The notes: generated from the letters alone by a model not told the origin. A stretch of 64,000 nucleotides of DNA from Psammoneis japonica (GCA_008632985.1 QPGO01000016.1:158840-222839); one strand, 5' to 3'. Counted from the stretch's first letter, positions 9,238 through 49,308 are shown. A program made the numbers and translations.

Positions 9238-9999
9238 TCTGCTCTTTTCTTTTGTGGGCCTGGCTAGACCTGGAGCTGCCGGCTGGGGCCTGGCATGCTA
9301 ACAACGAGAAGCACACCCTCGCGCCAATCCAATCAATCCCATTGAAAGATCATTTTCACTTGTTTTAAAGATCACATCACAAAAATGGAAAAGCAGATTG
9401 AACGCTTCGCTGCTGGCCGGCCATTGTCTTCATCACCATGGCAAAAACAGAGTGATGGCTGGCAGCAACATCTGCTCAAAGCGAAAAACCTTTTGATCAA
9501 TGATGAGGGATGAGAAGCCATTTCTCACATCCTTCTTGTCCTTCTTGTGTTCAGAGGAAGGTGCCAAGACAGCTGGCTGGTTGGATCTTGTTTTCTCCTT
9601 GTCCCCTGCCAAAAAAGAATGAGGGTGATGTTGTTTGTTAAAGTGCTGAGTGCCACAGCAGAGTTGTTTGATGCAAAGAGCGCAAAAAACCTCTTCTTTT
9701 GACTCAGTTTTTATTCGGAATGGAGAACATGCACACACTGGGGAGGAAAGGTGCCCAAACATTTTTGCACAGCCACCCATTGGCAGCCCAGCACACCAGC
9801 CACAGTGATCAATGCAAGCAACCTGCTCAAGTCAAGGAAGAATTGGAAAACACCACGGGGAGGGAGCACCAGCGCCATGTGCCAGATTGTCAGCAACATG
9901 AAAGCTGTCCAGCAAAACAAAACCCAAAGTCCAATTTTAAGTGCTGCTGTGCTTCCACCCTGCAACTCCGGCAACAAGCTGGCCCACACTCCCAGTGCA

Positions 10000-12900
10000 C
10001 TGGGTGCAGCAGGAGCACACAACAATTGGCCAAGATCGGCATCACCCTCTGGTGATGCCGCTCCAAAGTGGCTTGCGATGGTGCACATGCCTCTGGCAGC
10101 CAGACGCCGGGCCTCTCGAATGCTCGACTCAAACATTGGTTTTGCCATGGCGAGCCAGTTCCGGAGTCTGTGGGTAGAATGGGTGAGATGTTCATCCACC
10201 AAAGGAAACAACTCTGCTTGATCCCGGGCCAAGCACTCATCTGCCCCAGAGCAGATCTCTTTAATCTCCACCTCTGCATCCCGTCGTTGCGAAGACTTTC
10301 TCGTCTCTGAATCGTGTCCGTGCACTGCATCATTGTGGGAGTCCCACAATTCCCGCCATTGGGACCACACGTAACTGCCAACAGTTGCCGCCCAGTCCAA
10401 TCTTTTGTCTTTATCGGATGGAGAACAATGCAAGCCAGAAGACCGCAAATGCAACGTTTGTGCCTCATTCCACCTGTGGGAGAAATGCCCGCTGAAAATG
10501 TGGTGCCAGCCGATGTCGTCTTGAGAGTGAAACAGCTCTGTGACACTGTGATGGACGTTGGTGGAACACAGCAACTCCTTGTTGAACCAGCCTTCCAAGG
10601 CATGCAACAACAGGTCTTGCATGGACGGGGAGGTGTGCATGTCATCACATTTCTTCCACAATCCTTGTGGGAACGTGCGCCGCCACGACACATTGTGGGC
10701 ACAACGCAGCATGTGATCTCTGTCTTCGAAGGGGTGTTGGCAGTGTGTGCAACAGTTGGGGCGTGCAGGATCATGTCTGTGGACAATCTTGTTTGTTGGC
10801 AGGAGATCCTGAACCAACTTCACGGTGCTCACCTTTCGTCGGATGTTGCAAGACATCAGTTTGGAGTGAACTTTCCAATCTATAGAGTCGCACACTGGGT
10901 CAGACCAACCGCACTTCTCCTGCATGTGTTGGATCAGAGCTGGGCTGGAAGCTTCATGGCGGAGGACGGATTTAAATTTCGAGTTCACCGAAGCCAACTG
11001 GACATTCAGCATTGCATTGCAATGGGGCATTCGGGGAGCCATTGAGGTGTCTCCAGTGTGTTGGCCCTGAAACACACCTGCCAACCCATCGGCTCTAACA
11101 TTCACTTTTGCTGGGAACGAGAGGGACTTGGATGGAGTGTTGTCATCCTGATGACTTTTAATCCACTTCATGTTTGCTGCGTTGCTTTCAAGATGGCAGT
11201 CACATTGGGCCTCCAAACTTGTTGGTGAAGCGAAGATTTCGTGGACAACGTCCCAATCCGGCGCCACCGTGTTGGCGACATGATTCCGACAATGAAAATC
11301 TTGTTGTCTTTGTGAATCATCAGCATCCAAAGGAAGCGGTGGAGGAGAATGAAAGTTGGCAACATTGCGCACCAGAGAGGAATTGTCACAACAGGCAACC
11401 ACACTGTGTGAAAGACAACAGTTGCAAAAATCCATCACCCGGATGAGAAAGCGGAGAACTGACAGCAATCTGCGTGCTTCTGCGCGACACGAGGACGGTC
11501 AAAATCCAAAAACACAGCCCTGCACAATCCACCAGAATCACTCCGTTAACCGCTGGCGTCCAGCCAAAGGTGCCATTAAAATGCAAGACGGAACCATCAC
11601 TCCCTGCTTCTGCACGGAAGCACCCAAGGGACTCCGCTGTTTCAAATGCCGACACATGCATGTGAAGTGCACTGAACAGGGTTGACTCCCACAACGACAA
11701 GGACTGCAGCCATTTGCAAAAGTCCCCAAGGACAGGAATTGTTTGAGGCAACTTCACTGGGGATGCCAGGGATCGTGCGTGCCATCTGCCATCTGGTGTC
11801 GTGTCCACCATGACAGGTGATGCCAATGGGGATAGATCGGGAACTGTTTCCAACTGCTGAAGAGTTTCAGCACACTGTCCTTGACTGGAAACACTTGAAA
11901 ACCCACATCAGAGCGGACATGCAAAAACTCTTCGGAAGGCTCACAATGTGCCGGATGAAGCATGCGCATCATGGAGGCAGGAACGGTCCATTGACCCAAA
12001 GGGGTTCGGAGGGTGGAGGCACCTTCGTTGCACAACATTGTTTCCAGGCACAAGCAGACGGGCATGCCTGTTCAACTGGATTGAGTGACGACATGCCACT
12101 CATGAGGGAAGTTTGCCCTTTCAACTTGAACTCGTCTGAGTGTCGACCATCGGGAAGAGTGACGTCTGAAACAGCAAGTGCCCGTGGGAACAGCCTGCAA
12201 CAATTCACCCACCTGATCTCTTTTTCCGAGAAAAGTTTAGAATCCAGCACCACATCCATGGCACATTGATCATTCTTTCGTTGTGTGGGAAGGACGCCCG
12301 TGAAGTCCAGTTCAAAGTGAGCGTCAATGCGGGCGAGAAAGGATCTCAGAGACACAAACCATTTGGACTCGGAGTGCAGCAGTTTTGTGTGGACGTCTTG
12401 CAGAAAACTTGACCCTGTTCCAAGCTGGAATTGCATCCACGCCACTGCAATGCGGGACAAAGCATGGGGTTGCCCAGTTCCACGCCAGTGTCTGAGGAAC
12501 TGCAAACATTGAGCGACACCCTGCTCCACATCAAGAGATTGGAATCCTCTGCCTCCCAAGGTGTGCGGTCCGAATAAAACATCCCGCTTGGTGTTGCGGT
12601 TGTGTCCGCACTTGGCAAATGTAGTTCGCACAGCCTTGCATTGAATCTCAAGTAATTCCTTCAGTTGAAAATGTGCACTTGGAAGGATGTGCATGGTTGA
12701 GGCCAAGCAGCACGCAAAGTGGTGAGTCCATGCCTCATGACGGCCCAATGGACACAACCGGAGAAACAGAGAAATGTCGTCGCTTTTTGTTTTTGGTGCT
12801 TTGCACTGAGTCTTCTGAGTGCCTGCAGGAGATTTGCAATGTCCCAGTGTCTTGTGAGAGGAGCAAGCGGAAAGTTGGGTGCTGGATCTTTTGGTGGATC

Positions 12901-15900
12901 TGTCAGCGGAGTGAATTTCAATGTCGATCTCGTCATTGTACGCCCGAAGGTGTGGCTCTCCATCAGCAGTAAAATGCCATTCAATGGCATGAAATGAGCA
13001 CTTTGGGAGCTCCAGCTCATGTCCTGCCGCATCCAAGAGGTCGCACCACAGCTGATCATCTTGCTGCATTTTAGGAACTGGGTCCAGCGCATCTGGTTGT
13101 GGGTCAGCACAGAAGGTGTTCACTTGATTCAAAGTGTCATCAACACACCCTCTGGCACACATCCGCATTGAAGCTGTCCTGTCGGGAGTTTCAAAGTGAG
13201 CCCCATGAGCTTGGCTGTCAAATGGCCAAAACAAGCTGTTGCAAATTTGATTCCAATAAAAGGGAGAATTTCCGCTGCCCTGGCCAGTGCCACAGACAGG
13301 GAACTCATCCGAATGGGAGTGAGATGAAGTTGAGAGACCAAGAACTGTCTTTAACCAGCATCTTGCGTCATGTAAAGCAGCGTTCGCCGTCTGAGTTGCT
13401 GATTTGGGCAGCATGCCGTTGCTGCGGCTTTCGAGTGCTGTTAAAGCAGGAATGTTGCGATCACAACATGAGGCACAATCTCCATCACTGTGAATTGCTG
13501 TTTTCCGGGAAACTCTGCTGATCTCGAGCATCAGTTCCTCAAGGCACACCGGAGCATGAGCATTCAAAAAGGGACGCGTCCCGCAGATGCCTGGATTGCA
13601 CAGACGACGGTGTTCCATGTTCTGCGCCAAGACTCTCCATTTCACGCTGGACGTCAATTGAAAATCTGCCTCGCAGACATGGATGACTCGGAGACAATGT
13701 GTCTTGTTGTTTCCCGGCTCTTTGAAAATCATGACGTTGACAATGTCCTTCCACCTGTTGAACGAGCACCCCCAACGTAGAGCACAGTTTAACAAATTCA
13801 AGCGAGTCCCAATCAGCCGCTGTTGAATGTCATTCAAATGCTGACACTCGGACGTGAGATCGCCTTTGGGGGTGGTGGAGCTTGAACAAGAATGAGCTGC
13901 GCCATTGCTTTCCAGTGTCCCAAATGAAGGCCCGAGAACATAGAAGTGGATGCAGTTTCCTTCCACACCTTGAGTTTCCCTTTAAGATCCGATTCAGTCA
14001 GGAAGTCAGACACCAACGCTGGTGACCGTCATCGAAGATGTTGAACGAAGAGAGCAGTGGCGCTGTTGAGAGAGGAAGTGTCACATTCTCCGTCTAAGAT
14101 CAGGTCAGCCACAACCGTGTCACCTTCGCACCCGAGATCCACGAACAGGGGAGGAACGGCAGGAGGTGCGCCATGTGCTTGTCCAAAGTGTCGCTGATTC
14201 CGAGAACACAATGCTGCTGAAACGTCGTCTGGGATGTCAGTCGTGATCCAATCTTTGCACTCTTTAGGACTGGCAGCCGGGTTGCGAGGGACCTGCATGC
14301 CATTGACTCCTGCACCATGTTTTGCTTTGCACACGTTGATCTTGCAAAACAACCGGGCGGTTTCTTCTGACTTCTGCACGTTCCGAATGATTTTAGCTGA
14401 TTTGCGGGCGGCCGCTGTCCCATCTAGGTCCAATTTGGCAAGCTTCTCTGCCAGTTCCCGTTCACGTTGCTCGATGCTCTCCTTTGCAACTGCCTTGCAT
14501 TCGGCCTGTGCCTTGCGCAAGGCAACCTGACATTCATGAAATGTCATTGGAATGGAGAATGAGCCCATCAGCTTTGAACGCACCTGCTGGATCTGGGCGA
14601 CGTGATCAAAACGGTTCCTCATCATGGAAAGAACACAAGTGAGGATGTGTGCTCTGCAGCGGAGATCTGCCAACTTGACCGACCAGTCGGGTTCACGGTG
14701 GGATCGACACTTTTTCGCGGATGCTGGGGAGAACTGAAGAAGATCTTGGTCCAAGCGTTTGGCCAATTCGTGATTCAGAGCATCAGACTCTGTCAGCTGG
14801 GTGGATCGTTCCAAGACAGAACGGCTCTCAAGCATGGGACCAATGGCGGTTGAGTGCAAGGTGACCTGGGGTTTGGATGAAGCCAGATCGACGGTGGGAT
14901 TCCCGAACAGTTCCATCGTGTCAAAGTCTACAAAATGTGCCCGATGATCTGACGTGACACGGCATCCAAATGCTTCACATCTGCCTGGGCGAGCCGCAGA
15001 CAAAGCTCCTGGAGATGCTAGAACATGGCCCAGTCTTTTGGAGCCTCTTGTGCATGTTGAAAATTCGGAAACACCAAGGATTTGGAACAGGACGTCGGAC
15101 AAATTGAATCGTTGGGCAAGTGTAGCTGGGGAGTCTGTGTCCAACGAGAAGTCCGCATTGAAGTCACCAAACAAGATCACTTCTTGGTCATTCTCCGCAC
15201 GAAACTCTTGGAGCGTGCGCGACAGGTCCGCACAGAAGGCTTTGCGGGGATCAGTGGAGTTGCGACCCTGTTGATGCAGCAAATGCAATTGTTGAGCGCA
15301 GGCTGTTGTCTTCCCTGGTTGTTTTTGGTTTTTAGCGCAGACTCTGTGGCATGATGCAAACATGACTTGTCGCCCATTGCGACCATCAAACACCTGAACA
15401 GACCACCGACCTAACGGATCATGCTCCTGGGAGCGGAGTCGGGCAGAGATGGAATTGCATGAGACAAGTGCAGCACCACCCGGTTTACATTGGGTAGAAA
15501 AGGGGGTGGAACTGCACGAAAACGTGCTTCGCCCGTGGAGGAGGGACTTCAAAATCGCAGACCGACACACAGAGAGCACATCGAACTGGGTGGCATCCAG
15601 ACACATTTCTGAAATGCCAACCACGTCCGCTTGAATTTCGTTGGCAATCTGACAACAACCGTTGAGATCCCCACCACACTTGTCAAACTTGCATCCATTG
15701 GCGTTGAAGGCACAGAGTCTAGTGTGGTGTGGCAGTTTCGACTGAAGTTCATGTCCAATTGATTCATTTGTCTTGAGGCAGGAAAAATCGATCCTGCGAT
15801 CTGCCGAAGGAGCACAGTGTCTGCCGTCCAGTGTGTGTTGCCATGCAGTCGAAGGTGCAGCTGAAGAAAGCTCGCTGTTCATGGTTGGGCCTCGCTCCTC

Positions 15901-16107
15901 CAAGGAGAAGACTGGGGCTTGTAGCGATGCAAAGGGAGTGAGGCAGTTTGAAAGGAGAACCTGCAATGTCGAGAGGTGCGGCGAAAAACGTGTGCCAACG
16001 TGTGGGACTCTTGAAGTGCAGAGGCAATGTCGGGAGGACGCCTGGTCTGTTGAGGGGGAGGAGGCGGCGAAGTCCAACCCCTCGCTAAAAATCCTTCTCT
16101 TTGTCAT
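10000..16107 (-). pseudogene. LINE ORF2: AP endonuclease, reverse transcriptase, RNase H, C-terminal CCHC finger; frameshifted and hypermutated
   Basis: APE: FNANG, GISE, ILFGDFNA, SDHR. RT: KEPGN, LRVIHVCEADF, SCCDR, GTGQGSGNSP, GCVDD. RNase H: GSDGSV, CCDNSSLV, WIKSHQD, NVRAD. Finger: CTHC..EDRDHMLRC. Confidence 0.9.
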
Positions 16108-17477
16108 GATGGTCGCCAGACCTTTCTGGTGTTTCGTTGTTGTTGGGACGTTTCCGTGCCATGCTCTGTGTGGGTTGGCCTGCCTGCAACAGTTGGACGA
16201 TCTGATTCATCTGTGACTGCAACCCAGACAGTTGTTGCGAGTGGCGGTCCTGTGTGGCCATCATGTCATTTGTGTGTTGAGTGGTGAACGTGTTGTTCAG
16301 TGCCTCCATGTCCCGAGAATGTTGTGCACGTGTCTCAGCGAGGGCTTTGTCGTGGTTCTCTTGCATTTGGCTCACAGTCTGTTGAACTTCTGCCAGCTGT
16401 GCTGTGGCAATTGACGAGCTGGCAGTCGACTGTGTTGCCTGTGCATGAGAGTGCGGGGAAGACGTCGCGCTGCGATGTCCAGGGATGCCACAGGAAGGTG
16501 GGGAGAACTGGGAGCAATGGGTGAAAATTTGAGGAGGCACTGCTGGCTCCTTGAGAAGTTCCTCGTCCAGGGTGACCTCTTCCTTCACGTCCACGTCCAG
16601 CAAGTGGTTTTGAAGCAGGTTGTGTCGAACCTGAAGCCTGATTGTCAGTCAGTGGAGAAACGTCCGAAAATGCAAGAGATTCGAGGCTGCGAATGCCAGC
16701 CGACACAACAGATTTGCTGGTGTCGGATGATTCTTCGAGAACGCCTGACACTTGAGGAGGTTCCGAAAATGGGGGAGATGGGTGAGATTCTTTCGAAATT
16801 GAAGGGATCAAATTCACAATGCACGTTGAAACAGTGGCACGGATGGTTTCGAAGTTCCAACGGTCCACAAGAATGTTGCATCTTCCATCAACAACCGTGG
16901 ATGGAAACATTCCCTTCACTCCAGTTGATGCTTTAAGGTGATTTTCGAAGTGGAACATCATGTCCAGGGCAGTGTTCAGCAATGGCACCACGAAGGCATC
17001 TTCATTGTGACAAGCTTGCGTCTTGACAGCGTTGCAAAATGCGAGAGGGGAGATGTGACGAGTTTTCGCCATCACGACATGAGTCGGGAGTTTGTTCGAA
17101 GCGCAGAGTGGGGCCTTGCCCACAGCGCGACATTCTTCGCGCAATGCTTCAATGGCAAAGGTGGCTGTTCGAAGCGGGGTGGCAAGTCCATCATTGTCGG
17201 CACAAATCGAAGCAGGTGCCAACCGAAATTGTGGCATTTTAGTGCGGAAGCTTCCAAGGTCACTGATGAATGATTTGGCAGCTTCGTCAACCGGAGCATG
17301 TTTGGTGGAAGTGGCAATGCAATGTGCTGGAGTGGCCGTGTCGATGTCAGACTCGTTCCAGAAATGACGTTTCACACCCATGTTGTTGGAGTCCAAAATG
17401 CTCTGGACATGTGGATGGGAACGCATTTCGCGCAGTGGAGTCTCAGTGAGCACACGGTGACATGGGCAATGAGTTGC

Positions 17478-17700
17478 CAAGCAAATCCAGCTGCCGAGTG
17501 GCTCAGCCACTCACAGCACTGGCATGATGACAACCCAACGATCCAAAGATGCTCTTGTGCCTGCCACAACTGCTCGCAACAAGTGAGCGCCATTGGAGGG
17601 AAAGACAACGCTTCCCTCCGACAACACGTCACAACGGTTGACTCAGCACCAGCCGTCACCAACAGCACTCTAACTAAATCCGATGCATCGGATTTCTTTC
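17478..17700 (-). repeat. 3' LTR of the Copia element
   Basis: Gap-free alignment to 24448-24670. Confidence 0.92.
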
Positions 17701-17870
17701 GGTCCCCTTGAAATGTTTCTAACAAGCCAAGGGCGTGCTTGACAGACACAATTCAACCAATGCAATCAACCACATTGACACTCCGTGCTGGCCATGGTGT
17801 AAACCCTCACTGGGGAAGAAAATCACCACCGACCCGATTCCCAAAAATCCAAACCCCATTTGCCGCCAAT

Positions 17871-20800
17871 TCAACAAGTGAACTTGTCCAACAGGAAATT
17901 GCGACGAATCGAAGTCATGACCTTCGTGAACAAATCCGCGAGGTTAGTTTCCGCATCCTCCTTTGCCAAGCGAACAGTCCCCGCAGCAACAGCTTCCCCA
18001 TTGCGATGGCATGCAATGGAATGATGCTTCTTCTTGAGAGCAGACTCCGGGATGGAGCAATTCTTGTGCACTGCTTCATTGTCACAGAACACGTTCGTAG
18101 AACCTTCAACAGGAACTCCAAACATTCGAAGCTTGCACCTCAGACCTTCAACAAGTTCCACCGCGACCTTGAGTGCCACGATCTCGGCGCCAAAAGCACC
18201 AGTCTCCGCAGTGTTCTGTCTCTTCGAATGCCAGATTGTGGGTGCTTGGCACAGGAACATCAGAGCACCTGTGTGACTGCGGTGAGTTGAAACGTCACCA
18301 GCATGGTTGGCATCCACGAAACAATGAGTGGACACAACGTTGCCTCGAGGTGGTGGCATGTTGGGGGGAATCGCATCTTGCGCGTCTCGGCAGAAGTCGA
18401 ACCAATCGCACTCATTGAACCTAGACTCGTCGATGACCGGATGCGCAGGATCGAACGCCACCCGACGCTTTGGGACCTGTTTGAGGCATGCAAAGACATG
18501 CAATGCCTGTTCCAAGTGACCAATGCGCGGCAAGGCAAGGTGAGCCGACATGTTTGACACTTCCAAAATGACATCGACCCTGCCCAATTCCACGGCCCAA
18601 ATCAAAACGCCAATCAGCTCTTGGCAGCAGTTGAGGCCTTCTGCATCCAGTTCGCCCGAAGCATCCAACTCCGGCTTGCATCCGCTGCTCAAAGGTGTGC
18701 ATGCTTTGCTCGGCAGCCGTTTTCCTTCCTTGGCCAATTTGTCCTCAACGTTCCGGACCGCCGCCTTGCAGTGTTCTTCTGCTGACATCGTCCAGCAGGC
18801 AGTGCCGTCAGCAAGGTCCATCTTCGACAATTTGGTGCCCAAGTGGGATTCGGGTTCCACTGCTTTATCGTCTTTGAGCTTGAACTTCGACTTGATGCCA
18901 TCCACAGTCTTCATCGGCTCATGACTGATCGACAGCAAGTCGTTGACGCACACCAAGATGTGCCCGCAGTGCTCGAATCCGTCTGGCTTCACTGCAGGCC
19001 TCATCCAAACGTCGGGATCAGCCTTGCCAGGCTTGTGTCCTAGATCATAAAGCGTCTCCACCAGGAAGGCCCTGAATGCCGCGCCGGAGCTCTTCAATCC
19101 GTAGAGTGCCCTGACTGCAATCATAATCTCACCACGTTCCGTGCCAAACTCTTCACCGGCACGAGTCCAAATTTTCTCTCGGCACGGCGCTGTCAAGCAG
19201 GCATTCTGGATGTCGCAGGCAAAGACTTGCAAGTCATTGGGCGCTGCAAGTGTAAGAGCAATCCTCACCGAATCCCTGGAAACAACTGAGGAGCAGGTGA
19301 TGGCAGTTGGGGTGTCGGTCATGTGACCACCCGCAACCATCCTGCTCTTGTGCCGAAAGTTCTCTCCCAACTTGATGTCAAAAATCATGTGACAGTCGAT
19401 TTGTTGGCACCCAGGAGGCAGTTCCGTTTCGTCCCCCTCGAACTTGTCGAACGCAACTCAAACATTCTTCATTTTTTTGCCACAAGGTGTTGCCGTTCGC
19501 ACGATCGAGCTCCAGTGCCTCCTTCACAGTCTTGGGAATTCGTGTGCCAAATTTGTGGGTTCTCAACCAATGCTTCGACTTAACCTTCGCAATGGAACGC
19601 TTGCGGGTCCTCATTGTGTGCGGAGCCCACCAAGCAAACGCCGGCTCCTTTGAGATCTTGCGTTGGATGGCGAACTCGGCGACCTGGACAGGGAATCCTT
19701 CCTTCGCGTCCTTCAGGTCAACCCAAGCAGTGCTGCCATCCTTCCATTGGAACAAGAGTTCCCATCCTTTCGTGGTCCTGCGTCGCCTCTTGTTGCCTTG
19801 CTCAGTTTCAAAGAAATCGGATTCCGGGACGTCCCCATTCGTGCGGAAGTCCACAATCTCGTCGAACAGAACATGCCGATTTCCGTCCTCGTCAATCTGT
19901 GCGAACATGTTCATGGCAACAGAGTTAGCTGAGAGTGCTGCAGTGTGACCATCGGGACACTCTGCCTGACACATTCGAGCATCTAGGATTGGGTTGTCGT
20001 TGGCTGTCCCAATGGGAATGCCACTCGCATCCCTCAACCTCTTCGTCACGTGCGCGAACTCGGGACAATCATCATCTCTCGGCAAAGCCAATTCCACATT
20101 GAGACAACCCCAATCCACCGCTTCCGGGGAGGCTTCCTTGTCTTTCTTGTCATCGTCCTTGTTTGACACATCTTCAGAACTGATGACGCGATCGCACTCG
20201 TCGAGGAATTCATCGTCATACCCAAGACAGTCCTTCCAGTCTTCGGGGCTGATCCTGCGCTCTTTGTCTTTGGGAAAATCTTGGTCACGAAGTCTGTGCT
20301 GGATCTCCTCGTCAAAAGCCTTGAACCAATCTTGATTCTCTTGAGTGCCAGCTTCCAAGTTGGTGACTCGCTGAACAGATGTCCGCGATGTGACANNNNN
20401 NNNNNNNNNNNNNNNNNNNNNNNNNNNNNNNNNNNNNNNNNNNNNNNNNNNNNNNNNNNNNNNNNNNNNNNNNNNNNNNNNNNNNNNNNNNNNNNNNNNN
20501 NNNNNNNNNNNNNNNNNNNNNNNNNNNNNNNNNNNNNNNNNNNNNNNNNNNNNNNNNNNNNNNNNNNNNNNNNNNNNNNNNNNNNNNNNNNNNNNNNNNN
20601 NNNNNNNNNNNNNNNNNNNNNNNNNNNNNNNNNNNNNNNNNNNNNNNNNNNNNNNNNNNNNNNNNNNNNNNNNNNNNNNNNNNNNNNNNNNNNNNNNNNN
20701 NNNNNNNNNNNNNNNNNNNNNNNNNNNNNNNNNNNNNNNNNNNNNNNNNNNNNNNNNNNNNNNNNNNNNNNNNNNNNNNNNNNNNNNNNNNNNNNNNNNN

Positions 20801-21945
20801 NNNNNNNNNNNNNNNNNNNNNNNNNNNNNNNNNNNNNNNNNNNNNNNNNNNNNNNNNNNNNNNNNNNNNNNNNNNNNNNNNNNNNNNNNNNNNNNNNNNN
20901 NNNNNNNNNNNNNNNNNNNNNNNNNNNNNNNNNNNNNNNNNNNNNNNNNNNNNNNNNNNNNNNNNNNNNNNNNNNNNNNNNNNNCCACTTTGCCGTCGAC
21001 CGCATCAGTCGCCCACTCGCCTCGAAGTTTCGGCTTCGTGAACATCCGATCCGCTCGACAACGCCTGGCCAGGGGCACAAGCGCCGATCTCACTAGCTTC
21101 TGGGTGGTCTTCTTCAATGTTGATGCCGCTTGTTTCAATCCAATGCCCCAGCGCTCGCTCAAGTCAACAGCGGTGACAGAACTGTGCCATTCCTTGGACA
21201 TGAAAGTCTTCGGGGATGGTGTGTCTTCGAGTTCCGAGCCGATTGTCTCAGTGGCCGCGATCTGAACATCCGCTTCCACCTGGACCAATGCTGTCAATCT
21301 TGATTGAACTTGGTCCACACCGCAGACAAGTCTCCCATCACAACAGTCCCCAGACTGAGGGTTGCTGCAATCAGGATCCTGACTGAACGCGCAGCTGGGG
21401 CTTGACCGAACACTTGCGACCGACCAAATCAACTCCATTTCCTCCTCCACAGAACGTCGAGGTCTGGGCTGCTTAAACTTGATGTTGTGTGGATCCCAAG
21501 GTTGTTGGGAGGTCAGCTGGATGTGTGGGCACTCTTGGAGCTCCCTGTCAGTGGGGGTCCGAGCAGCCGCAACGACACTGGCTCCCATCAACTCAAGAGG
21601 TAGCATGAATCCCTTGTCCTCCATAAGGACATGCAACGGTGACTCGGAACAGGGGTTGTCCTGAACCGTGATGCTGAAATGCCTCATCTGATTCGGGTTG
21701 AGGAGGGAATTCTCCATGGAATCTGCCATCCAAAGCCCCTCATGGAATGCCAGGATGCGCGTTGCTCCCGTCGCCGGTGAGGTCCACGCAGTGGCCACCG
21801 ATGCGATTGGGACACTCTTGATGGCTTCGTGTCCCTCGTTGTAAGGCGATGCGTCGCATTCTCTTCCAGTGCAACCCAAGAGGGTAAAGTTCGAACCAAA
21901 AACAGTGGTGTCAGCATGTGAGTCCAACTCTAGTCGTCCATGCTT
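17871..21945 (-). pseudogene. Copia pol (protease, integrase partly in the gap, RT, RNase H); hypermutated
   Basis: ELDSHADT protease motif, QWKDGSTAWVDLKD, MIFDIK, KSRMVAGGH, RALYGLKSSGAAF, ILVCVND, FVDANHAG, FCDNEAV, NLADLFTK. Confidence 0.95.
20396..20984. other. Assembly gap (589 N) in the integrase region
   Basis: Run of N. Confidence 1.
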
Positions 21946-22158
21946 TACCTGATCGTCTGTTCGGACGTGAGTGGCACGCGTGTTTGTCCGTGCCGCAGAG
22001 ACTCGTCATGTGGAAGCAGCAATTTCACAAATGCAACGACAGTCCCCATGAACCAACGTTTCTTTCGAACGATGCGGCTGGCCCCCGCCCCAATGAAGCA
22101 GCCACAATGCAAACTGGATGAGGCTACAAAGCAGGGTCCAGCTTGGGAGTCAGCTGTG

Positions 22159-24142
22159 TCACTGACGCTCCTGGCGTCCCCCAAATGCATCTCCGGCATT
22201 GTTGCCGCCTTGACCGCCAGTTCCTGCACCAACGTTTCCGGAATCGGTGCCGGCAGTGGTCTCCAAGGAAGAAATGGTGCGGTTCGCTTGCTCAAGCTGG
22301 GACGTCAGCTTCCGATTCTTCTTTTTAAGCGATCTGACGGATGCAGCGCGGCGCTTCGGGTTACCCGGCCTCTTCTTGAGTCCTAAACGCACATGCTCGT
22401 CCATGAGACGTGTTCCAGTCCCAGGTGACACACAAAACGACAATTCGATTTCGAATATAAATTATTTATCTATAAGTGTATGAAGCATTTTCATATAAAA
22501 TACTTAAGCGGATTGGCTTTTATAGGCGTCTAGAGTATGAATAATTATGAAGAATTAAATACTTTTTTGTGGGGTATCGATGTCCTCATGGGATATGCAT
22601 CATAAACTTCCTCAGTAGACTCAATACTGATTGTACGTCTGTACTCTTTATACGGAAATTTCTTTGTAAGTAGAAACTATACTGAAAAGCTTCGTAAAAA
22701 GATATATTTAGTTAACATCCAAATAACGGCAATAATTTCGTCGAAAATCATCCGTTGTGTTACGATTCGTTTATCGCAATGAAAAACATTGATGGCACAA
22801 TAACAATGATTTTGCAACACTCACACGAGTCTTGTCAGTGTTGCAAAACATTAGAATTTGAATAAATCTATACTTTTGGTGGTGAAAAACCGTTCGTAAG
22901 TCAGAGACCGCGCAAAAATCGCGCAAATGTCGTTTTTGTGCACGATTTGGGTCACGTGCGGCTGGAACACGTCATGACCTTCTTCTTGTCTTCCTTGCTC
23001 AATTGATGCCAATTTTTATGAAATCCGGTGTCAATGGACCCATCTTCTTTGTAAATGGAATCACCTTCCTTGCTGACGCCGGACGCAACAGAGGAAATCG
23101 CACGACGGCGCGCAACTGTTTCCGGGAGGGTGGCGACTTTAGTGGCAAGATGGTTGCACGCTGCAGTAAAACCAATCCCTCCTCCAAACTCATTCTGTGC
23201 CTTCAGGGTCTCTGCTGCGTTCTGCAACTGCTGGTGTTGCACCTTGTCGAACAGCAATCGCAGCTTCTGAGCCTCCGTCTTGGGTTCATCATTCTCTTCG
23301 AAAATGTCGAACATCTCCTGAAGCTTGTTCACGAATGTTTCGAACATCATGGAGCGTTCACTCCTGCAGTGCAGAGTGTTTTCCAAACGCTCAGCTTCCG
23401 AGATACGACGGGTGGCACCACCCTCGCCCTGACAGTGGTTCTCCAAAGATTCGCAGCAGAGACGACCGTTCTGGCTGTTGCGGTGCTCTTTGATCCACTG
23501 CTCGCTTGGGGTGCCTTTCGTGAACAAAACGATCAGCTGGCTGACGGCACGAGAATCAGCTTCGAAAGCTGGACCCTTGAGTGGAGCGCATGCAACCAAC
23601 TTCTGCACAAAAGTCTCATGCCCTTCAGGCTCGGGCTCCTCGTTCTCGCGCATGACATGAATCAACGGAATGCCGTCGACTCCCAGCATCGTGCCAAGCA
23701 TGTTCTTGAAAGCGGTGCTCCATTTTGCCCAGACCTTTTCGCTCTCCAAGAGTCCAGGGGATGCCTCACGAGCAATGGACTCGGATTGATCCCTCATCTG
23801 GCTGCGAATGTTGGCCCTCGACAATGCAGCAGACAGCGCATCGAGAAAACGCGCCTGATCCAAACCGTCGATGGTGGGATTTTCACCAACGCGTTGGAAG
23901 TCATGTGCCCAATGAACAAGGGACTTGAGGTGACGGGTGCGAGCCAATCCAAAGTGGAAACGCCCCTCAGCAGCAGTCCTCCTCGAGCAAGACTGCGCGA
24001 GCGCATCGATGTCTGATTCCCTCACATCGACAACATCGTCAAATGCAGCGACATCAGTCACAATCGCGTCACGCTGAGCAGGTGACTGGAAGCCGATCCA
24101 AGCAAGGGCCGTTTCCATCGGGTTCGGGGGGTTTGCCGCCAT
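22159..24142 (-). pseudogene. Copia gag, interrupted by MITE copy A
   Basis: ORF 22952-24142 (GVDGIPLIHVMR, APLKGPAFEAD, FTAACNHL) rejoins as KKKVM|DEHVRLGLKK and ends with the CoDi-type NAGDAFGGR motif. Confidence 0.88.
22407..22973. mobile_element. 567-bp MITE, copy A (interior retains TA)
   Basis: TIR GACGTGTTCCAG / CTGGAACACGTC (20 of 23 matched when extended); 4-bp TSD ATGA. Confidence 0.93.
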
Positions 24143-24447
24143 GGTGAAACTTGAGTCATTGTGGCATCACAAGACAAAGCAGTTGTGTTGGAAGCAGTGC
24201 ATCAAAACTTTGACGTTCACAAAATCGCGTTGACGACACGCGCAGGCCTTGAGAGTGCGGAGATGTGGCCTTGTCTCCCACTGCTTTGCGCATGCACTGA
24301 TGCGAAGGCATCACTCAACGGTGAACACCCTCAGGTCAGTCGGCATTCATCGTCAAAACTGTGCCATCATGACACAACCGTCACAATCACGTTGTTCATC
24401 GTTTTTCATCGCCAAACCGCGGAGTGCGGACTGTGGCTCTGACAAAG

Positions 24448-24670
24448 CAAGTGAATCCAGCTGCCGAGTGGCTCAGCTGCTCACAGCACTGGCATGACAA
24501 CAATCCAACAATCCAAAGATGCTCTCATGCCTGTTGCAACTGCTCGTAACAAGTGAGTGCCATTGGAGGGAAAGACAACGCTTCCCTCCGACAACACATC
24601 ACAACGGTTGACTCAGCACCAGCCGTTGCCAACAGTGCTCTAACTAAATCCGATGCATCGGATTTCTTTC
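24448..24670 (-). repeat. 5' LTR of the Copia element
   Basis: Gap-free alignment to 17478-17700. Confidence 0.92.
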
Positions 24671-24907
24671 GTTGCTGGGCATTTGTCACCGCCGCGATTC
24701 GTCGTGATGACAAAGTGTTGCTCGTGTTGGAGGGAAGTGATCCATTCTGCCACGTTGACATTTGCAATGCGATTGTTGTGGTTGTCAAGAATCTGAACGT
24801 CTTTGTGGCAGGCAAACAAAATTTGCTGCAGGACTTGCAAATGGGCGGTGGCAAGAGTCGTGGGCTTGCACAACGATTCTTCACCACGAGTTTCAAATCG
24901 GAGGGTG

Positions 24908-25473
24908 GACGTGTTCCAGTCCCAGGTGACACACAAAACGACAATCGATTTTGAACACAAATCATGCATCCATTAGTGCATGCAGCATTTTCATGTAAAA
25001 CACTTGAGCGGATTGGCTTTTGTGGGCGTCTGGAGCATCAACAATTGTGAAGAATTAAATGGTTTTTTGTGGGGTGTCAAATTCCTCATGGGATGTGCAT
25101 CATAAACTTCCTCAGTGGACTCAATGCTGATTGCACCACCGCACTCTTCATAAAGAAATTTCTTTGTAAGTGGAAAATGCACCAAAATGCATCGTAGAAA
25201 GATGTGCTTGTTTGACATCCAAACGACGGCAACAATTTCGCCGAAAATCATCCGCTGTGTTGCGATTTGTTTGTCGCGATGAAAAACATTGATGGCACAA
25301 TGACAATGATTTTGCAGCACTCACACGAGTCTTGCCAGTGTTGCAAAACATTAGAATTTGGACAAATCTACACTTTTGGTGGTGAAAAACCGTTCGCAAG
25401 TCAGAGACCGCGCAAAAATCGCGCAAATGTCGTTTTTGTGCACGATTTGGGTCACGTGCGGCTGGAACACGTC
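24908..25473. mobile_element. 566-bp MITE, copy B (TA-depleted), inserted in LINE ORF1
   Basis: Same TIRs as copy A; 4-bp TSD GGTG; colinear with copy A. Confidence 0.93.
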
Positions 25474-27419
25474 GGTGATTTCTTTGAACTTGCGCTCAGT
25501 TGGCTTGGAAGAAAGCTCAATGGAAGACTGGTCAACAGCAACATCGTCTGCCATGATGGCATCTTTGTTGCGAGTTGGGGTGGGGCTGCCATCAGCGACG
25601 GAAGAAGACGCCATGGTGGTTGGCTGTTCTGCGGGAAACCTGGCATCAAAATCACGCAGGCAATGTCAATGCGAGTGCGCGCAGAATTGTGAAAGCTGTC
25701 CAGCAAGAAGAGGGTTTGTTTGTGCAGCCCCATCTGGCAGATCCTCATGCAAAGCAAAACTGGGAATGAATCAAGGCATGTGGACCTGCCAACTCTCAAG
25801 CTCCACCCCATGGCTCTCCTCTAAAAATGGATCTCAAAAAAGGATGTGGACAAAAGAAATCATTCACTGTTGATGTTTTGTTGCTTTGATGAGATGGTTG
25901 AGCCAAGAAAGAAAAAAGGTGGCTGTCAATTGGATGCTCTGTGGCAGGCAAGAAGGGCTGATGGTCAGTGACAGGCTGGGGCATCAACACCTCTGTGTTT
26001 CACCACAACAAGCCAAGTCAATCATTGTGCAGCTTGACAAACAGTGAGTGTGAGGAAGCCTGTGGTCACCACATCTGACTCCACAAGAAGAAAAAAACAA
26101 AATGAGTTGTCAACTTTGTCCTGAGCCTGTGATCCATGGGTTGCGCAGTTTGCAACAAAACACCGCGGATCATGATCCAGAGGATGCAGGTGTTTCAGTT
26201 CCCATTTTGTGCAACAATGCAACAACTGCATGTGAGCTCACAAGAAGGGAGGACAACAATTGACAGAACTTGGTTTTTGGCAACTTTGCTGACTGAAGAA
26301 TCAATTTGTGGGTCCTCTGTCTCTCTGCTTGAGTCATGACAAGAAGACAGGGACCTCATCTCAGCAGGAATCATGTCATCAGATTGAATGCTGAGTTCCA
26401 CCATGGTCACTTCAGGTGCACAAGAGGGCTCTGAGAAGAAGGTCCTCAGGTTCAAAATGACACTGCACCACGAATGAGCAGATTTTGCAGCATGAACCCC
26501 CAGAATGTGATTTTGAATTGTTGATGGTGGCATGCTCTCACTGTGGAACAGCAATGGAACAATGTTCTGAATGATGCAATGTGGAAAAATTGAGAATCAA
26601 TTTGGCCAGCAGTCAATCATTTTCCAGCCAAAGAAATGACCAAGGCAGTTGCAAATTTGGAATGTTTTCTGTGACAAAATGAGGGTAATTTGTTGTCACT
26701 TCACTTGGCCAGCAAAAGTCATTGGGTGCAATTTTGTGCAAAGACCACTTGCAAATGAAGTGGTCAATCCCAAATGAACCCCGAGGACTTTTGTCCAACC
26801 AACCCATCCTGCAGTGGAAGGCTGTTGCTGGGTCAATGGTGAACAGCTGTCACTGAAATTTTCAGACGTCCAGCATCTCCAGATCACTGTTGCTGTTGCC
26901 ACAGGAAAAAATCATTGTGGCAGTCAAAATTCTTAGACAAATTGCATTCAAACAGATGAACCTCAGATTTTTTCCCTCTGAATTTTGTGGATGGCACAAG
27001 CAGGTCAATTGTTTCTCACTCCGCACCTGCTGCATTTTTGAACAGGCCTGCTTCTCCCCCAGAACAACTCCTCATGAGCAAACACAGCAGCAGCGAGAGC
27101 AAAATGAGAAAAGTGGAGGTGACCCCAGTGCTTCTGCACTGGAGGTGGAGGGGTCACCATGCCAGCATCATCATTTTGAAAGACACAGTGAATTTTTGCA
27201 TGAGATTTGGTCCAATCGCTCCAAGGGCCAAGGCAAGTCAAAAACACAATGTCAGCACTGTTTGTTGCATTCACCATTTGCCAAATGCATGTCTGCTGAA
27301 TCAAGCTCATGACGCACAAGTCACAGTTTGATTCATTGTGGCTCCAAAGTTGTTGCCAGCATGACTTGAATTGGAAAAACCCATCGGTTTGAAAAACACA
27401 CGCATGCAATCCAGACACA

Positions 27420-27830
27420 ACATGTGCACACATCAGTTTGGACAAACCACCCTTTTTGTAAAAAACAACACAGACCCCAATGCATGTGTGTGTGAAATTG
27501 GACAAACACACATCAGTTTGGACAAACCACCTGCAAAAAAATCATGTTCATCCCAGTGCACACACACACATGAGAAATTGGACAAACACACTTCGGTTTG
27601 GACAAACCACCCTGCAAACAAACAATCATGACACCAATGCACTCACACACAAGAAATTGGACAAACGCACATCAGCTTGGACAAACCATCCTGTTCACAA
27701 AAAACATGGAACCAAACAAACACATGCAAGAAATTGGACAAACATGCTGTGCAGCACATCAGTTTGGACAAACCACCCCGCAAATGAACAACATTTGTCC
27801 CAATGTGTGCACATGAGAAATTGGACAAAT
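27420..27830. repeat. Imperfect tandem array, ~75-85-bp unit (AAATTGGACAAAC...CAGTTTGGACAAACCACC)
   Basis: TTGGACAAA recurs about 10 times in alternating short/long spacing. Confidence 0.85.
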
Positions 27831-28341
27831 CTGCACAGTGCTCCGATGCATCTGCAGCACAGCATGTGGACTCTGCTGGCAGCCAGGGCTGCAGGTGGTG
27901 CAGGATGACTCTCTGTTCAAAAATCAAATGATCGTCGGGCCATCATCGCGATCGCGACACTCATGACTGTTGATGATGAGAGGTGGCGGAGGTTCCTTTT
28001 CACCGCGACGAATCATCTTTGCAAGCAAAACATGGACATGGATCCAAACCTGGATTTGTTGAACAGTCTGTTTGTTGGGGAAAACACAGAAGACGTTTGT
28101 CGTGCACTGCAAGCCGGCGCCGATTTGAACCATGCTGCATTTTGGGAAGATGACGGTGCTCCGTTTCAAGTCCTTTTTCATCTTGTTGGCGTTGTTCCAA
28201 CGCCAAGAAATGTCGATGCAAAATTGCAACTCTTGCTGGATGCTGGGGCACGCGTGAATTTTTGACATTCAAAATGTGGCTGGACCCCCTTGCTCCACTT
28301 GTGCCATCATGGGCGTGTGTCCACGGTTCGGATCCTTGTGT

Positions 28342-30135
28342 CACACTGACAGACATCCGAGATGGGGAGCACACTAACTTGTGTTGGACAGACTGGCGTG
28401 GACAGCATGGAGAGATCTGATGATCTCTCCTTTGCTCACTTTCTTTCTCATCTAGCACACGATTGTCATCTGTCCCAGATGTCCGTTAGATTGTCCCAAT
28501 GCCGCTGGTCTGCAAGGTTGTGAGCAGCAGTGTGCTGTTCCTCTTCCTCTGTGCTCCTCCATTGCAATGCCTGTTGTGTGATTTGGCGACCTTTTCTTCG
28601 TTGAAATCGTCATCACTGTCACAGCTGTTTTTTCACCTCTCGATTTGTGATCAAACAACCACCGCAGAACACATGCCAGAGCTCTGTGCAGGAATTTGAT
28701 TTTTTTTCCCGCGCAACCATGGTGAACAAAAATCAAGACGCCGTCAATTTGACCAAGATCAAGACGATGCGGGTTGAATTCAGCCCACACAATCGCTCAC
28801 CCGATGCCCACATTTTCCTGAATGCCTTCATTTGGATGAGATCCCTGCTCCTGAAGATCTTTTGGATGGATTCACCCCTCAAGGCCTCAAGAGCGATGCT
28901 GTCACTGTCCTCCGACATGAGATCGTTCACAATCTCATCATCCCTGAAGCCACCCTGACCAAAGATCTTGCGCGAATCGGGCCGATCATTGAAAAGGCTC
29001 CTCTCTTTGTGGCCACCCCTCAAGGCTCCTTGGTTTGCCTGAACCTCAGTGCTCTTCAGAAGACTGTGATCAAGGCGATCTCAGAGAACGACGACACCAT
29101 GCATGCATGTGTTGGGACTCTGCGTTTCTGTTTCAGCCCTCGTTTTCGGCATTGTGATTGCTGGGATGATGTCTCCGATGACCCGCATCCAGATCCACCG
29201 ACTGCTTCAAGTTCTGCATCCCCTCCGGTTGCTGCTGCAGGTCTCACTCCTGAAGACTGTGCCAAGGCCTTGGCAACTCATTTGCCTGGTCCAAACGGGG
29301 TGTGGGCAAGCTGTGGTTGGTGGGTTGAGGACCATTTCGAGCTCTCATGCACATGCTGAGTCCAAGTTGTGCCCAGATCCCGCTTCTGCTGCCAGTGGCT
29401 GCAACACTGCTGTTGCATCTCTTGTTGAAGATGCACTTGCTGTGGACTCTCGGATGGACCCTGCGGATGACAGAGTTCTTTGAACATCAAGTCTGCTGTG
29501 TCCACCACAGAACCAGTGGGTGAGCCATCTGCAGCTGTTGATGCCAGGTCCCTTGCAATTCCCACCGAATCGGCAGCACTTCCTGCCGACGTCCATGCCT
29601 GCCTGCTTGAGACCCCAAAGTTTTTTGTTTCAGCGGGCCACTCTGTTGTTCCATGCAAAAAGGGCCACACTCACCTCAAGGATGGACTGCTCTCTCTTGC
29701 CAAGGTTGCACCCAAGCTGCTTGCCACCTGCATCCCGCCGTCATCGGATGCTTGCGGATGCCGCCAGCACTCTGTTGGTTGTCAAGTTGATTCGCACTTG
29801 GATTTGTGGTTTGGCCGTCGTTGACTTCGGACACACGATGCCGCCATTCTTTCCATCATCCAAGCAAGACCAATGGAAGCAGGGCAGTTGTGAAAGAGGG
29901 CCACGGAGTCTTGCTGCCTTCTGCCATCACGTCTCTTTCCTCCGTTGTCAGGACCGTTGTCGTGTCCATTTGCACTTTTCATGGCACTCTGGACCTGTCC
30001 ACCATCGCTGATGATGATCCTTCATTTTCTGATCAAGGGAGGGAGCAATGTTGTGCAGAGGAAGTGTGCACGATTGATCATCACACCAACTCTTCCAGTG
30101 TGTCGCCTCTTTCCTTCACTGTCAAGACCGTTGTG
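28342..30135. mobile_element. ~1.8-kb unclassified insertion in the ankyrin gene
   Basis: Removal restores the ankyrin frame. Flanked by a GTGT(C) direct repeat with CACA...TGTG ends. Contains a decayed unidentified ORF at ~28720-29800. Confidence 0.6.
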
Positions 30136-30610
30136 GTGTCGAGTGGCATTGGTGCGGCAGTCAACGCAAGAGAAACCAGGCATGGTTTCATGCCTCTGCA
30201 TTTCACCGCAATGAATGGATGTGGTGATGTCTGTCGGTTTCTTCTGCAGAACAATGCTGACGTGGATTCGAAGTCACTGCAGCGGCAGATGGCCGAACAG
30301 CTCTTCACATTGCCGTCAGCCGCTTGGATCGAGAAAGCATTGTGAGACCACTTTTGGAGCATGGAGCGAATGTGAGTGCCACAAGCGAGAGAGGAGGAGT
30401 CACGCCATTGCACATGGCTGGCAAGTGTGGCAGTGAAAGCCTTGTGAGACCACTGTTGGAGCACGGCGCTAATTTGAATTCCAGAGCCGAGAATGGGTTG
30501 ACACCATTGGACTGTTCCACCAAATGTGGCAACCACGGTGCCACCTCTGCCTTGATGGAAGCGCATGGGCAACAGCTGTTGTCGCACGATGACATTCCGC
30601 GAGCGCTCTG

Positions 30611-31754
30611 GGACACACGGCATTTTGTCGCATTTGGCGACATTTTCTTAAATGAATTGATGATTTGTCGCGAAAAGACGCGAACTGCGACAAAATGTCC
30701 GGGTTGGCGACAAACGGGACAGAAACATTGTTCAATTGAGTCACAAAATGATTGATGTCATTTGTGACCAACCTGCACTTTGGTGGTGTCGTTTCAACAA
30801 GTGGGGCAATTGACCAAATTTGGCGATCGATGTCATCGACAAAAATTCACCCGACAAAATTTGTCGCATCCAACAAAATTTGTCGCACCCGACAAAATTT
30901 GTCGGACATCCGACAAAATTTGTCAGATGTCTGACAAAATTTGTCGGCATGCGACATGACAAGACACGACACGACACGACAAGACACGACACGACAAGAC
31001 ACGACACGACAAGACACGACACGACACGTCACGACAAGACACGTCACGACACGAGGACTCACGAACGAAACACCCACGCCCCCCGCACATGCTGACCGCT
31101 GACGTCTCCGTTGACACTGCCGTTGTGTCTCTTTTGCACGATGATGCAAAGCGACGATCATGCCACTCTCGGCGGTCTCCATGCTCTCGTCAATGCCGGG
31201 ACAACATCGCACGCTTCTACATGGTGCAACGGAGTGCGCCGGCATGCATTGCTGCACTGTGCCTTTTGTCAGCACGGCTGGGCACTTCTGAATGTTGGGG
31301 AGTGTTGCATTGTCGGCATGTTGCAAACGTCTGTCTGTCAGTGTTTGTCGGCTCTTGTCGGCTCTTGTCGGCGTTTGTCGTACATTGTCGGGGTTTGTCG
31401 GGGTTTGTCGGGGCTTGTCGGGGCTTGTCGGGGTTTGTCGGGGTTTGTCGGACACGACAAAATTTGTGGCACGTCCGACAAAATTTGTCATGCATCCGAC
31501 AAAATTTGTCGCATGTGCGACAAACTTGCCAAAACATCGGTTGACAAGTGCAGTCTTTGCCGAAAGTCAAACTCATCATGTGGCACTGCAGTTGATGTGA
31601 CGTTTGTGTTTGGGACACGTCATCACCAATTGAATGATGATTTTGTCTTGTTTGTCGCCAACGGTTGAAATTTGTCTCAAAGGGCGTTTTTCATGACAAA
31701 TCGTCCAATTCATTTGTGGGAATGTCGCAATTGGCAACAAAATGCCGTGTGTCC
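30611..31754. mobile_element. Non-autonomous TIR element (PIF/Harbinger-like by 3-bp TSD) filled with mini- and microsatellites
   Basis: TIR GGACACACGGCATTTTGT (18 bp perfect, ~70 bp imperfect); TSD CTG; removal restores the host frame. Confidence 0.88.
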
Positions 31755-49200: not shown

Positions 49201-49308
49201 ATGTGAGTGGGCCGGGGCAGCGTGACTCAAACTAGGAGAAAGAAAAAGAGGAGTCTACTCTTAAGTGACAGTTTCTTTCACATGACAATCGATGGATGCC
49301 ATTGCACC

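Follow-up and report, generated by a model that had tools for sequence, protein, structure and literature searches.

About half of a 64,000-nt stretch of the Psammoneis japonica genome (GCA_008632985.1 QPGO01000016.1:158840-222839; hereafter the window, with all positions counted from its start) is nearly devoid of the dinucleotide TA, and a Ty1/copia retrotransposon in this DNA carries CA in one long terminal repeat (LTR) at sites where its other LTR carries TG. Together the results lead us to regard it as highly probable that TA was converted to CA or TG by a process that acted on DNA after integration, was limited to certain regions, ran nearly to saturation, favored the context RTAY (R, purine; Y, pyrimidine) and struck in strand clusters, with a weaker, parallel decay of CpG to TpG or CpA.

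According to this proposal, a region-limited hypermutation would turn TpA into TpG, and strikes on the opposite strand would produce CpA. Each LTR of the copia element would have been struck independently and almost to saturation, so that at roughly half of the sites the two LTRs now show different products of an ancestral TA, one CA and the other TG, and the remaining sites agree. This process would also have stripped TA from a whole transposon nest, including a long interspersed nuclear element (LINE)-like element, the copia element, a miniature inverted-repeat transposable element (MITE) and other repeats, as well as from two smaller blocks, leaving the neighboring genes and a later MITE insertion in the nest untouched.

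Reciprocal differences between the sister LTRs

A direct repeat pair was detected at 17478-17701 and 24448-24671 and trimmed to 223 bp as the LTRs. The two copies (17478-17700 and 24448-24670) align without gaps over 223 bp and differ at 20 positions, every one of them a transition (20/20). Fourteen of these differences make up seven whole-dinucleotide swaps of CA for TG, and at an eighth site, offset 99, the left LTR reads GCA and the right GTA, that is, CA against a retained TA. Adjacent difference pairs number 8 in the alignment; when 20 differences were placed at random on 223 sites 200,000 times, at least 8 such pairs arose in a fraction of about 8e-5. Both LTRs keep eight CpGs intact, and the left one alone keeps three more. 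A preliminary description of this DNA had reported the gap-free alignment with its seven swaps, the additional site of CA against TA, and many CpGs intact in both copies; its coordinates and every site that it quoted proved correct.

The element has an RVT_2-type reverse transcriptase and direct LTRs with a 5-bp target-site duplication, as expected of Ty1/copia. Its reverse transcriptase open reading frame (ORF), at 17871-19457 on the minus strand, matches RVT_2 in Pfam (PF07727, E 5.7e-13). At E <= 1e-5 it has 2,693 relatives, the top one sharing 64% identity, and PF07727 is present in all of the best 120. The copia ORFs at 19378-22005 and 22952-24166 gave no Pfam match (gag, protease or integrase); this region contains a gap of 589 N and has lost nearly all Tyr codons, so that the lack of matches carries no information. 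No further copy of the LTR was found elsewhere in the 64-kb window, and a degenerate 36-letter LTR pattern matched 0 stretches in metagenome contigs.

The GTTGC duplication is identical on both flanks, and the two LTRs are thus sisters from one copia insertion. Since there was a single insertion, the differences between them arose in place, on DNA. If the LTRs were instead a recombinant or gene-conversion patchwork of two family copies that had been mutated separately, this argument would weaken, and the family is indeed highly repeated: comparison of window positions 17000-25400 with one sequencing run (X1; 657,387 records, 140.7 Mb) yielded 2,365 contigs of at least 80% likeness, some of which link LTR positions unexpectedly. 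Recombination between elements normally gives unlike flanks, however, whereas identical 5-bp duplications flank this element, and we consider a patchwork very improbable. Even a patchwork would be built of copies mutated as DNA, which leaves the main conclusion unaffected.

The same reasoning bears on changes that the element could have undergone before integration, through A-to-I editing of its RNA or errors of the reverse transcriptase, and that were then copied into DNA. ADAR-type editing prefers a 5' U and targets double-stranded RNA derived from repeats, according to a preprint discussed below (10.64898/2026.01.13.699255), and the Tyr losses inside the element, taken alone, give no timing for the mutations. 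Both LTRs are copied from one template, though, so any earlier change would be common to both, and the duplication confirms that only one insertion took place. Furthermore, a MITE copy of the cut-and-paste type, a duplicated fragment of a host gene and the DNA between elements share the signature, and both strands are affected equally, with a skew of CA against TG within +/-0.06. We therefore assign pre-integration change hardly any probability. The preliminary description had likewise placed the mutations on DNA after integration and dismissed RNA editing and reverse transcription errors; the matched duplications and the occurrence of the same signature in the MITE copy and the LINE-like element bear out the former, and one template with one insertion suffices for the latter as far as the sister-LTR differences are concerned.

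The seven dinucleotides also distort the apparent age of the insertion. Raw LTR divergence is 8.97%, and 2.87% when the seven are left out, so dating by LTR divergence would mislead and would inflate the age of the copia element about three-fold, an overestimate that had been anticipated from the alignment.

TA as the probable ancestral dinucleotide and the context of its loss

In 1-kb steps, the ratio of observed to expected TA is 0.00-0.16 over 6001-22000, 23001-34000, 48001-49000 and about 58500-61000, and about 0.4-0.8 elsewhere. The depleted blocks pooled hold 142 TA in 30.9 kb, with observed/expected values of 0.08 for TA, 1.60 for CA, 1.59 for TG and 0.62 for CG; outside them the window has 1,331 TA in 32.3 kb, with values of 0.59, 1.14, 1.20 and 0.96, respectively. 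GC content is 0.51 inside the blocks and 0.47 outside. The switches in TA density are sharp, at about 6069, at 22402/22973 and at 33620, and a stretch of 1,983 bp in the main block (28487-30470) is free of TA.

The switch at 22402/22973 marks a young MITE-like insertion in the copia element that is TA-normal. A family contig joins 22401 directly to 22973 and so skips 571 bases, with 5 letters compatible with either side and a summed depth of about 15,000, which indicates that the MITE entered the copia element later. An older copy of this MITE lies in TA-depleted DNA, and the pair provides a comparison before and after mutation. The 47 TA of the young copy correspond in the older one to 17 CA, 20 TG, 8 TA, 1 CG and 1 TT, and 24 of 29 CG are retained. 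When the 68 substitutions are polarised by the TA-normal copy, 49 are A>G or T>C, 5 are G>A or C>T and 14 are transversions. Along the older MITE the CA and TG outcomes form 13 runs against 19.4 +/- 3.0 expected, and thus fall into same-strand clusters. That the young MITE stands untouched within a saturated block suggests that the process works in bursts and not continuously.

Protein homologues point in the same direction. Across the first 60 homologues of the copia reverse transcriptase, 288 columns are conserved at a level of at least 80%, and the window's copy keeps 244 of them. Conservation holds for 243 of the 273 non-Tyr columns and for 18 of the 22 conserved Arg columns; the 15 conserved Tyr columns hold 1 Tyr, 10 Cys and 4 His. 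With the best 120 homologues the Tyr columns read 11 Cys, 3 His and 1 Tyr. Among these relatives, 118 are ordinary in having Tyr in 1,682 of 1,770 cells. In the other two, P0075 and P0036, conserved Tyr residues are likewise replaced by Cys or His, with outcomes unlike those of the window (8 Cys, 3 His and 2 Tyr in P0075; 2 Cys, 5 His and 7 Tyr in P0036), which we read as traces of the TA process in other public assemblies.

Similarly, a 150-bp piece of ALG9-like coding sequence is present twice, at 44015-44161 and 49084-49229, with 78% identity, the second copy lying at the edge of the block near 48 kb. The TAs of this second copy are mostly TG or CA relative to the gene copy. Taken together, the reverse transcriptase homologues, the MITE pair and the ALG9 duplicate indicate that TA is the ancestral state and CA or TG the product, and that the action is on DNA whatever an element's mode of movement.

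It could be objected that no mutation was fixed at all. Random G or C calls in each copy might come from a modified base, for instance inosine or, at TpA of silent chromatin, a modified thymine, or else from an artefact of assembly or polishing. In favor of this, only a single sequencing run contains the stretch; it is possibly the source sample, and 0.62 of the sampled words are present in it. In that run, however, 399 contigs reach at least 99% likeness, which is hard to square with a 50:50 mixture of letters every 25 bases or so; in addition, P0075 and P0036 show the same replacement of Tyr with different outcomes, and the young MITE in the same block reads normally. A read-out artefact is thus extremely unlikely, and fixed conversion of TA remains our preferred explanation.

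Context further defines this conversion. Survival odds for TA were computed on both strands, normalised by CA+TG of the same context, for the depleted blocks against the rest of the window. The slow contexts are TTAA (0.45), CTAA/TTAG (0.33) and CTAG (0.21); the fast ones are GTAA/TTAC (0.11), ATAA/TTAT and CTAC/GTAG (0.06 each), ATAG/CTAT (0.03), GTAC (0.02), ATAC/GTAT (0.009) and ATAT (0.002). By 3' neighbor, the length-normalised ratio of TA in blocks to TA in the rest is 0.025 for TAT, 0.067 for TAC, 0.18 for TAG and 0.23 for TAA, and YTAY contexts gain mainly TG over CA. RTAY is therefore hit hardest and YTAR is spared, and this survival pattern together with the gain of TG at YTAY assigns the change to the A of 5'-TAY-3' or, equivalently, to the T of 5'-RTA-3'. 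Any candidate enzyme would have to obey this rule. Skew of CA against TG stays within the limits given above in every block.

The two formulations of the rule leave room for the mutated base to be T, for instance an enzymatically modified thymine of the hydroxymethyl-uracil type, set on R-T-A of silenced DNA, that mispairs with G and yields T>C, or for passive chemistry in chromatin. The data are strand-symmetric, and a hit on A in 5'-TAY is the same as a hit on T in 5'-RTA. On the other side, the only experimental precedent proposes deamination of A, with an ADAT2-like candidate, and near-complete conversion with sharp block edges suggests an active, targeted process. We consider a thymine target or passive chemistry unlikely, yet the most serious competitor to deamination of A.

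The seven reciprocal sites can now be judged against the alternative that they were CpGs, deaminated as methyl-cytosine on opposite strands in the two LTRs. The resulting pattern would be formally identical, CG giving TG in one LTR and CA in the other, and loss of CpG in the copia element is real: the right LTR alone has lost three CpGs, CG falls to about 0.1 of expectation in some sub-blocks, and family contigs, considered below, show CG where the window does not. The rate is far too low, however. With 8 CpGs kept in both copies and 3 lost in one, the loss per LTR copy is about 0.158, so that 0.28 CpGs should be lost in both copies and 0.14 should be reciprocal; 7 reciprocal sites were seen (P(>=7) = 2e-10). 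At the rates of the MITE pair, in which CG was kept at 24/29 sites and TA at 8/47, a reciprocal outcome has a probability of 0.31 from TA and 0.0048 from CG, a likelihood ratio of about 65 per site in favor of TA. The block values of TA and CG, 0.08 and 0.62, and the loss of Tyr (1/15 kept) but not of Arg (18/22 kept) also argue against CpG. We judge a CpG ancestor for the seven sites very unlikely.

Additional features of the LTRs agree with a TA ancestor. The excess of CA+TG over composition, 10-13 per LTR, fits about a dozen converted sites per LTR, of which about half are expected to be reciprocal. Read as TA, the seven sites are GTAA, CTAC, ATAA, TTAT, CTAC, TTAC and GTAC, all fast-mutating contexts, and the TAs that persist in both LTRs, two in number, lie in CTAA, a slow one. 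Family letters at the LTR sites come from a few short contig stretches of run X1, aligned by eye, in a table weighted toward positions at which the window alone deviates. In these, offset 42-43 reads TA, TG and CA in three family copies, a clear TA site, and other copies show CA or TG where the two window LTRs agree, as predicted for hidden concordant sites. At three places within 17000-25400, the contigs have lost a TA that the window still has.

Several observations weigh against tracing all of these changes to TA. In the MITE pair, about 10 of the 49 changes of type A>G or T>C fall outside TA, so the process is not strictly TA-limited, and in this pair alone, where the classes are small, a preference of direction by flanking base is not significant. 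Among the 40 best-supported differences between the window and all family contigs, 16 have TG or CA in the window and CG in the family; these are private CpG losses in this copia copy. Run X1 may be the window's own sample. Lastly, one family contig, again aligned by eye, reads CG at the third reciprocal site, 17528/24498. For this site a CpG origin and a double hit from TA to CG, which has a frequency of about 2% per site (1/47 in the MITE pair), are about equally likely. The preliminary description had preferred TA to CG as the ancestor throughout. That preference is largely supported by the Tyr losses, the MITE pair, the block values and the CpG rate, except possibly at 17528/24498, which is ambiguous.

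Content of the depleted blocks and of the TA-normal DNA

The main block (Table 1) contains the LINE-like element, the copia element, MITE-like copies, an element bounded by terminal inverted repeats and tandem repeats. Tyr makes up 0.0-0.4% of residues in all nine long ORFs tested within it. The density per kb and strand is 2.0 for TAA and 1.5 for TAG in the blocks, compared with 8.9 and 8.2 outside, and TGA is unchanged. The near absence of TAA and TAG leaves long stop-free ORFs in all six frames between 6000 and 34000, among them overlapping ones of 100-870 aa on the two strands. Gene callers would thus over-predict here, with long false ORFs in six frames.

Table 1. Positions of the depleted blocks, the copia element and associated features in the window.
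Feature	Position	Strand	Remarks
Main TA-depleted block, ~28-kb transposon nest	6070..33620 minus island 22402-22973		TA ~0.08 and CA/TG ~1.6 of expectation
LINE-like ORF, endonuclease domain Exo_endo_phos	14029..16206	-	Tyr 0.0%
Target-site duplication, left copy GTTGC	17473..17477		Abuts outer end of left LTR
3' LTR in element orientation, 223 bp	17478..17700	-	Seven sites read CA CA TG TG CA CA CA
Internal region, degenerate Ty1/copia	17701..24447	-	RVT_2 ORF 17871-19457; N gap 20396-20984; Tyr 0.2-0.4% in three long ORFs
Young TA-normal MITE-like insertion, terminal inverted repeats, very high copy	22407..22973		47 TA; not in closely related copia copy
5' LTR in element orientation, 223 bp	24448..24670	-	Seven sites read TG TG CA CA TG TG TG; keeps TA at offset 99; three CpGs lost that left LTR retains
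Target-site duplication, right copy GTTGC	24671..24675		Abuts outer end of right LTR
Older hypermutated MITE-like copy	24908..25473		In TA-depleted DNA
Second depleted block, low TA and low CG	47790..49150		Edge carries TA-stripped ALG9-like duplicate 49084-49229
Third depleted block	58480..61040		TA ~0.04 and CG ~0.08-0.09 of expectation within 59001-61000
Reciprocal CA/TG sites (left/right LTR)	17482/24452, 17508/24478, 17528/24498, 17556/24526, 17565/24535, 17657/24627, 17666/24636

Domain searches miss hypermutated transposons: about 17 kb of retroelement yielded only RVT_2 and a single endonuclease domain, and 18 further block ORFs gave a weak ankyrin match and a CS domain as their sole Pfam matches. 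These two are Tyr-free ORFs inside the depleted block, a weak ankyrin repeat at 29791-30345 on the plus strand and a partial CS domain at 32448-32999 on the minus strand, and they may be host-type genes or fragments trapped in the hypermutated region. A search for homologues of the CS-domain ORF in the block, as a sign of collateral damage to host-type genes, found none. The element bounded by terminal inverted repeats, at 30610-31755 in the depleted block, has 65-nt arms that are 71% complementary and 21-bp subterminal repeats, and is probably another DNA transposon.

CG is also nearly gone (0.08-0.32 of expectation) in 25800-28400 and in the two smaller blocks, where CA and TG reach about 1.8-2.0. 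Either CpG methylation decay was stronger in these sub-blocks or the TA process also hit C there. Two DUF4832-like paralogues, at 45136-46481 and 61651-63004 and with 64% DNA identity, are TA-normal, and each adjoins a block depleted of both TA and CG.

The TA-normal genes, which encode ALG9-like, EDR2_C plus PH, DUF1995 and ADH proteins, are long uninterrupted ORFs. All 10 named organisms among the best 120 matches of the ALG9-like ORF are diatoms, at 40-45% identity; the top matches reach 68%. The DUF1995 protein begins with a signal-peptide-like stretch followed by Phe, which we take, on weak grounds, to be the plastid-targeting pattern of algae with complex plastids of the red type. An ORF of 851 aa at 55495-58050 on the plus strand consists mostly of tandem repeats of 129-135 bp (about 45 aa) with 62-91% identity and has no Pfam match. 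Tandem arrays are present in TA-normal DNA at 3590-4147, with 93-bp units (five overlapping copies, each of two units, of a 186-nt reference), and at 4180-4329, with 2 copies of a 75-bp unit.

Candidate mechanism and comparison with known systems

The chemistry could be deamination: an enzyme, TadA/ADAT-like or another deaminase, would turn adenine in DNA into inosine and may act episodically on silenced transposons or foreign DNA as a genome defense, a mirror image of the fungal repeat-induced point mutation (RIP). We give this enzyme and its defensive role an even chance of being right. A broader version is possible but rather doubtful: a RIP-like system of the diatom lineage running in the opposite direction, with a 5'-TAY DNA adenine deaminase that would strike silenced nests in strand-coherent bursts and remove TA together with every Tyr codon and the TAA and TAG stops, homologous to a chlorarachniophyte system and part of an old deaminase immunity shared by stramenopiles, alveolates and rhizarians. 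If an adenine deaminase of this kind exists, a natural enzyme acting on DNA would be of interest to the base-editing field.

Several other origins of the depleted blocks were considered and rejected. A horizontal origin from a genome with native TA avoidance does not agree with the replacement of conserved Tyr, which marks the sequence as degraded and not adapted. GC-biased gene conversion has no dinucleotide specificity, and a transcription-strand bias is not seen in the near-zero skew of CA against TG.

Fungal RIP changes C to T at CpA, turning CpA or TpG into TpA and lowering GC; it works by deamination of cytosine and is linked to cytosine methyltransferase-like proteins and to the sexual cycle. 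The process described here resembles RIP in that dinucleotide-specific transitions arise at the DNA level in repeated transposons, apparently in bursts, and spare neighboring genes, and in that LTR dating is distorted and transposons are hidden from domain searches. In contrast to RIP, its direction is opposite: TpA is destroyed and GC is raised (0.51 against 0.47). RIP proper, with C>T at CpA, an excess of TpA and AT enrichment, was therefore rejected as a candidate.

Decay of 5-methylcytosine at CpG likewise yields TG and CA from one dinucleotide, and it is present as a weaker second signal in the copia element and, probably, as a strong one in three sub-blocks. It cannot explain the loss of TA, the change of Tyr to Cys or His, or the number of reciprocal LTR sites. 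ADAR and APOBEC editing shares with our case the deaminase-driven hypermutation of selfish elements and, for ADAR, a preference for a 5' U or T. These enzymes act on RNA or on reverse transcription intermediates, with strand bias and with changes shared by both LTRs, whereas our case involves unlike sister LTRs, equal hits on the two strands and a DNA transposon among the targets.

The closest system is that of the chlorarachniophyte Bigelowiella natans. As reported in the main text of a preprint (Mettrop et al., bioRxiv 10.64898/2026.01.13.699255), two silent viral insertions in mutation-accumulation lines acquired 231 mutations, of which 230 were A>G or T>C, and all GC-biased mutations, per the authors, were on TpA and gave TpG or CpA. 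The same text gives a TpA hypermutation rate of about 6e-7 per site per generation, in some lines only, and 124 clusters in the genome that are poor in TpA and rich in CpA+TpG. Three of the four Pfam domains enriched among TpA-depleted coding sequences are of transposon type (DDE endonuclease, endonuclease-reverse transcriptase as well as reverse transcriptase). As the mechanism, the authors put forward deamination of adenine in DNA, with an ADAT2-like enzyme as candidate (10.64898/2026.01.13.699255).

Judged from sequence, the P. japonica case appears to match every feature of the B. natans process that can be compared at this level. Changes are mainly A:T>G:C (49/68 MITE substitutions are A>G or T>C, and 20/20 LTR differences are transitions) and lie mostly on TpA (37/47 MITE TA became CA or TG, and 14/15 Tyr codons became Cys or His). 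Loss of TpA is coupled to a gain of CpA+TpG and is clustered against a normal background. Moreover, the action is on integrated DNA, affecting sister LTRs, a MITE copy and a host-gene fragment, and seems not to be constitutive, as the untouched young MITE suggests; the B. natans targets described in the preprint are silent foreign regions.

The two cases also differ. In place of a chlorarachniophyte and its viral insertions, a diatom-affiliated host and multi-copy LINE-like, copia and MITE targets are involved here. Depletion is near saturation, with TA at 0.08 of expectation against the 0.45 that the preprint gives for the B. natans virus region. The long uninterrupted ORFs of the window contrast with the roughly 8 introns per gene listed for B. 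natans (PMC13746701, Table 1). The preprint's main text describes de novo events in mutation-accumulation lines, whereas our case is known from comparison of sequences alone; a tetranucleotide rule, strand patches, and the sister-LTR and MITE controls of the state before and after mutation are found in P. japonica and are absent from that main text.

Literature searches for a TA-specific process in diatoms or under other names returned papers on RIP and this one preprint (10.64898/2026.01.13.699255), and none on diatoms. Thus TA hypermutation is not categorically new, and P. japonica provides a further case of a recently described process. Our results add a diatom-affiliated genome and ordinary transposons to the range of TA-specific DNA hypermutation, which has so far been described in a single 2026 preprint, for a chlorarachniophyte.

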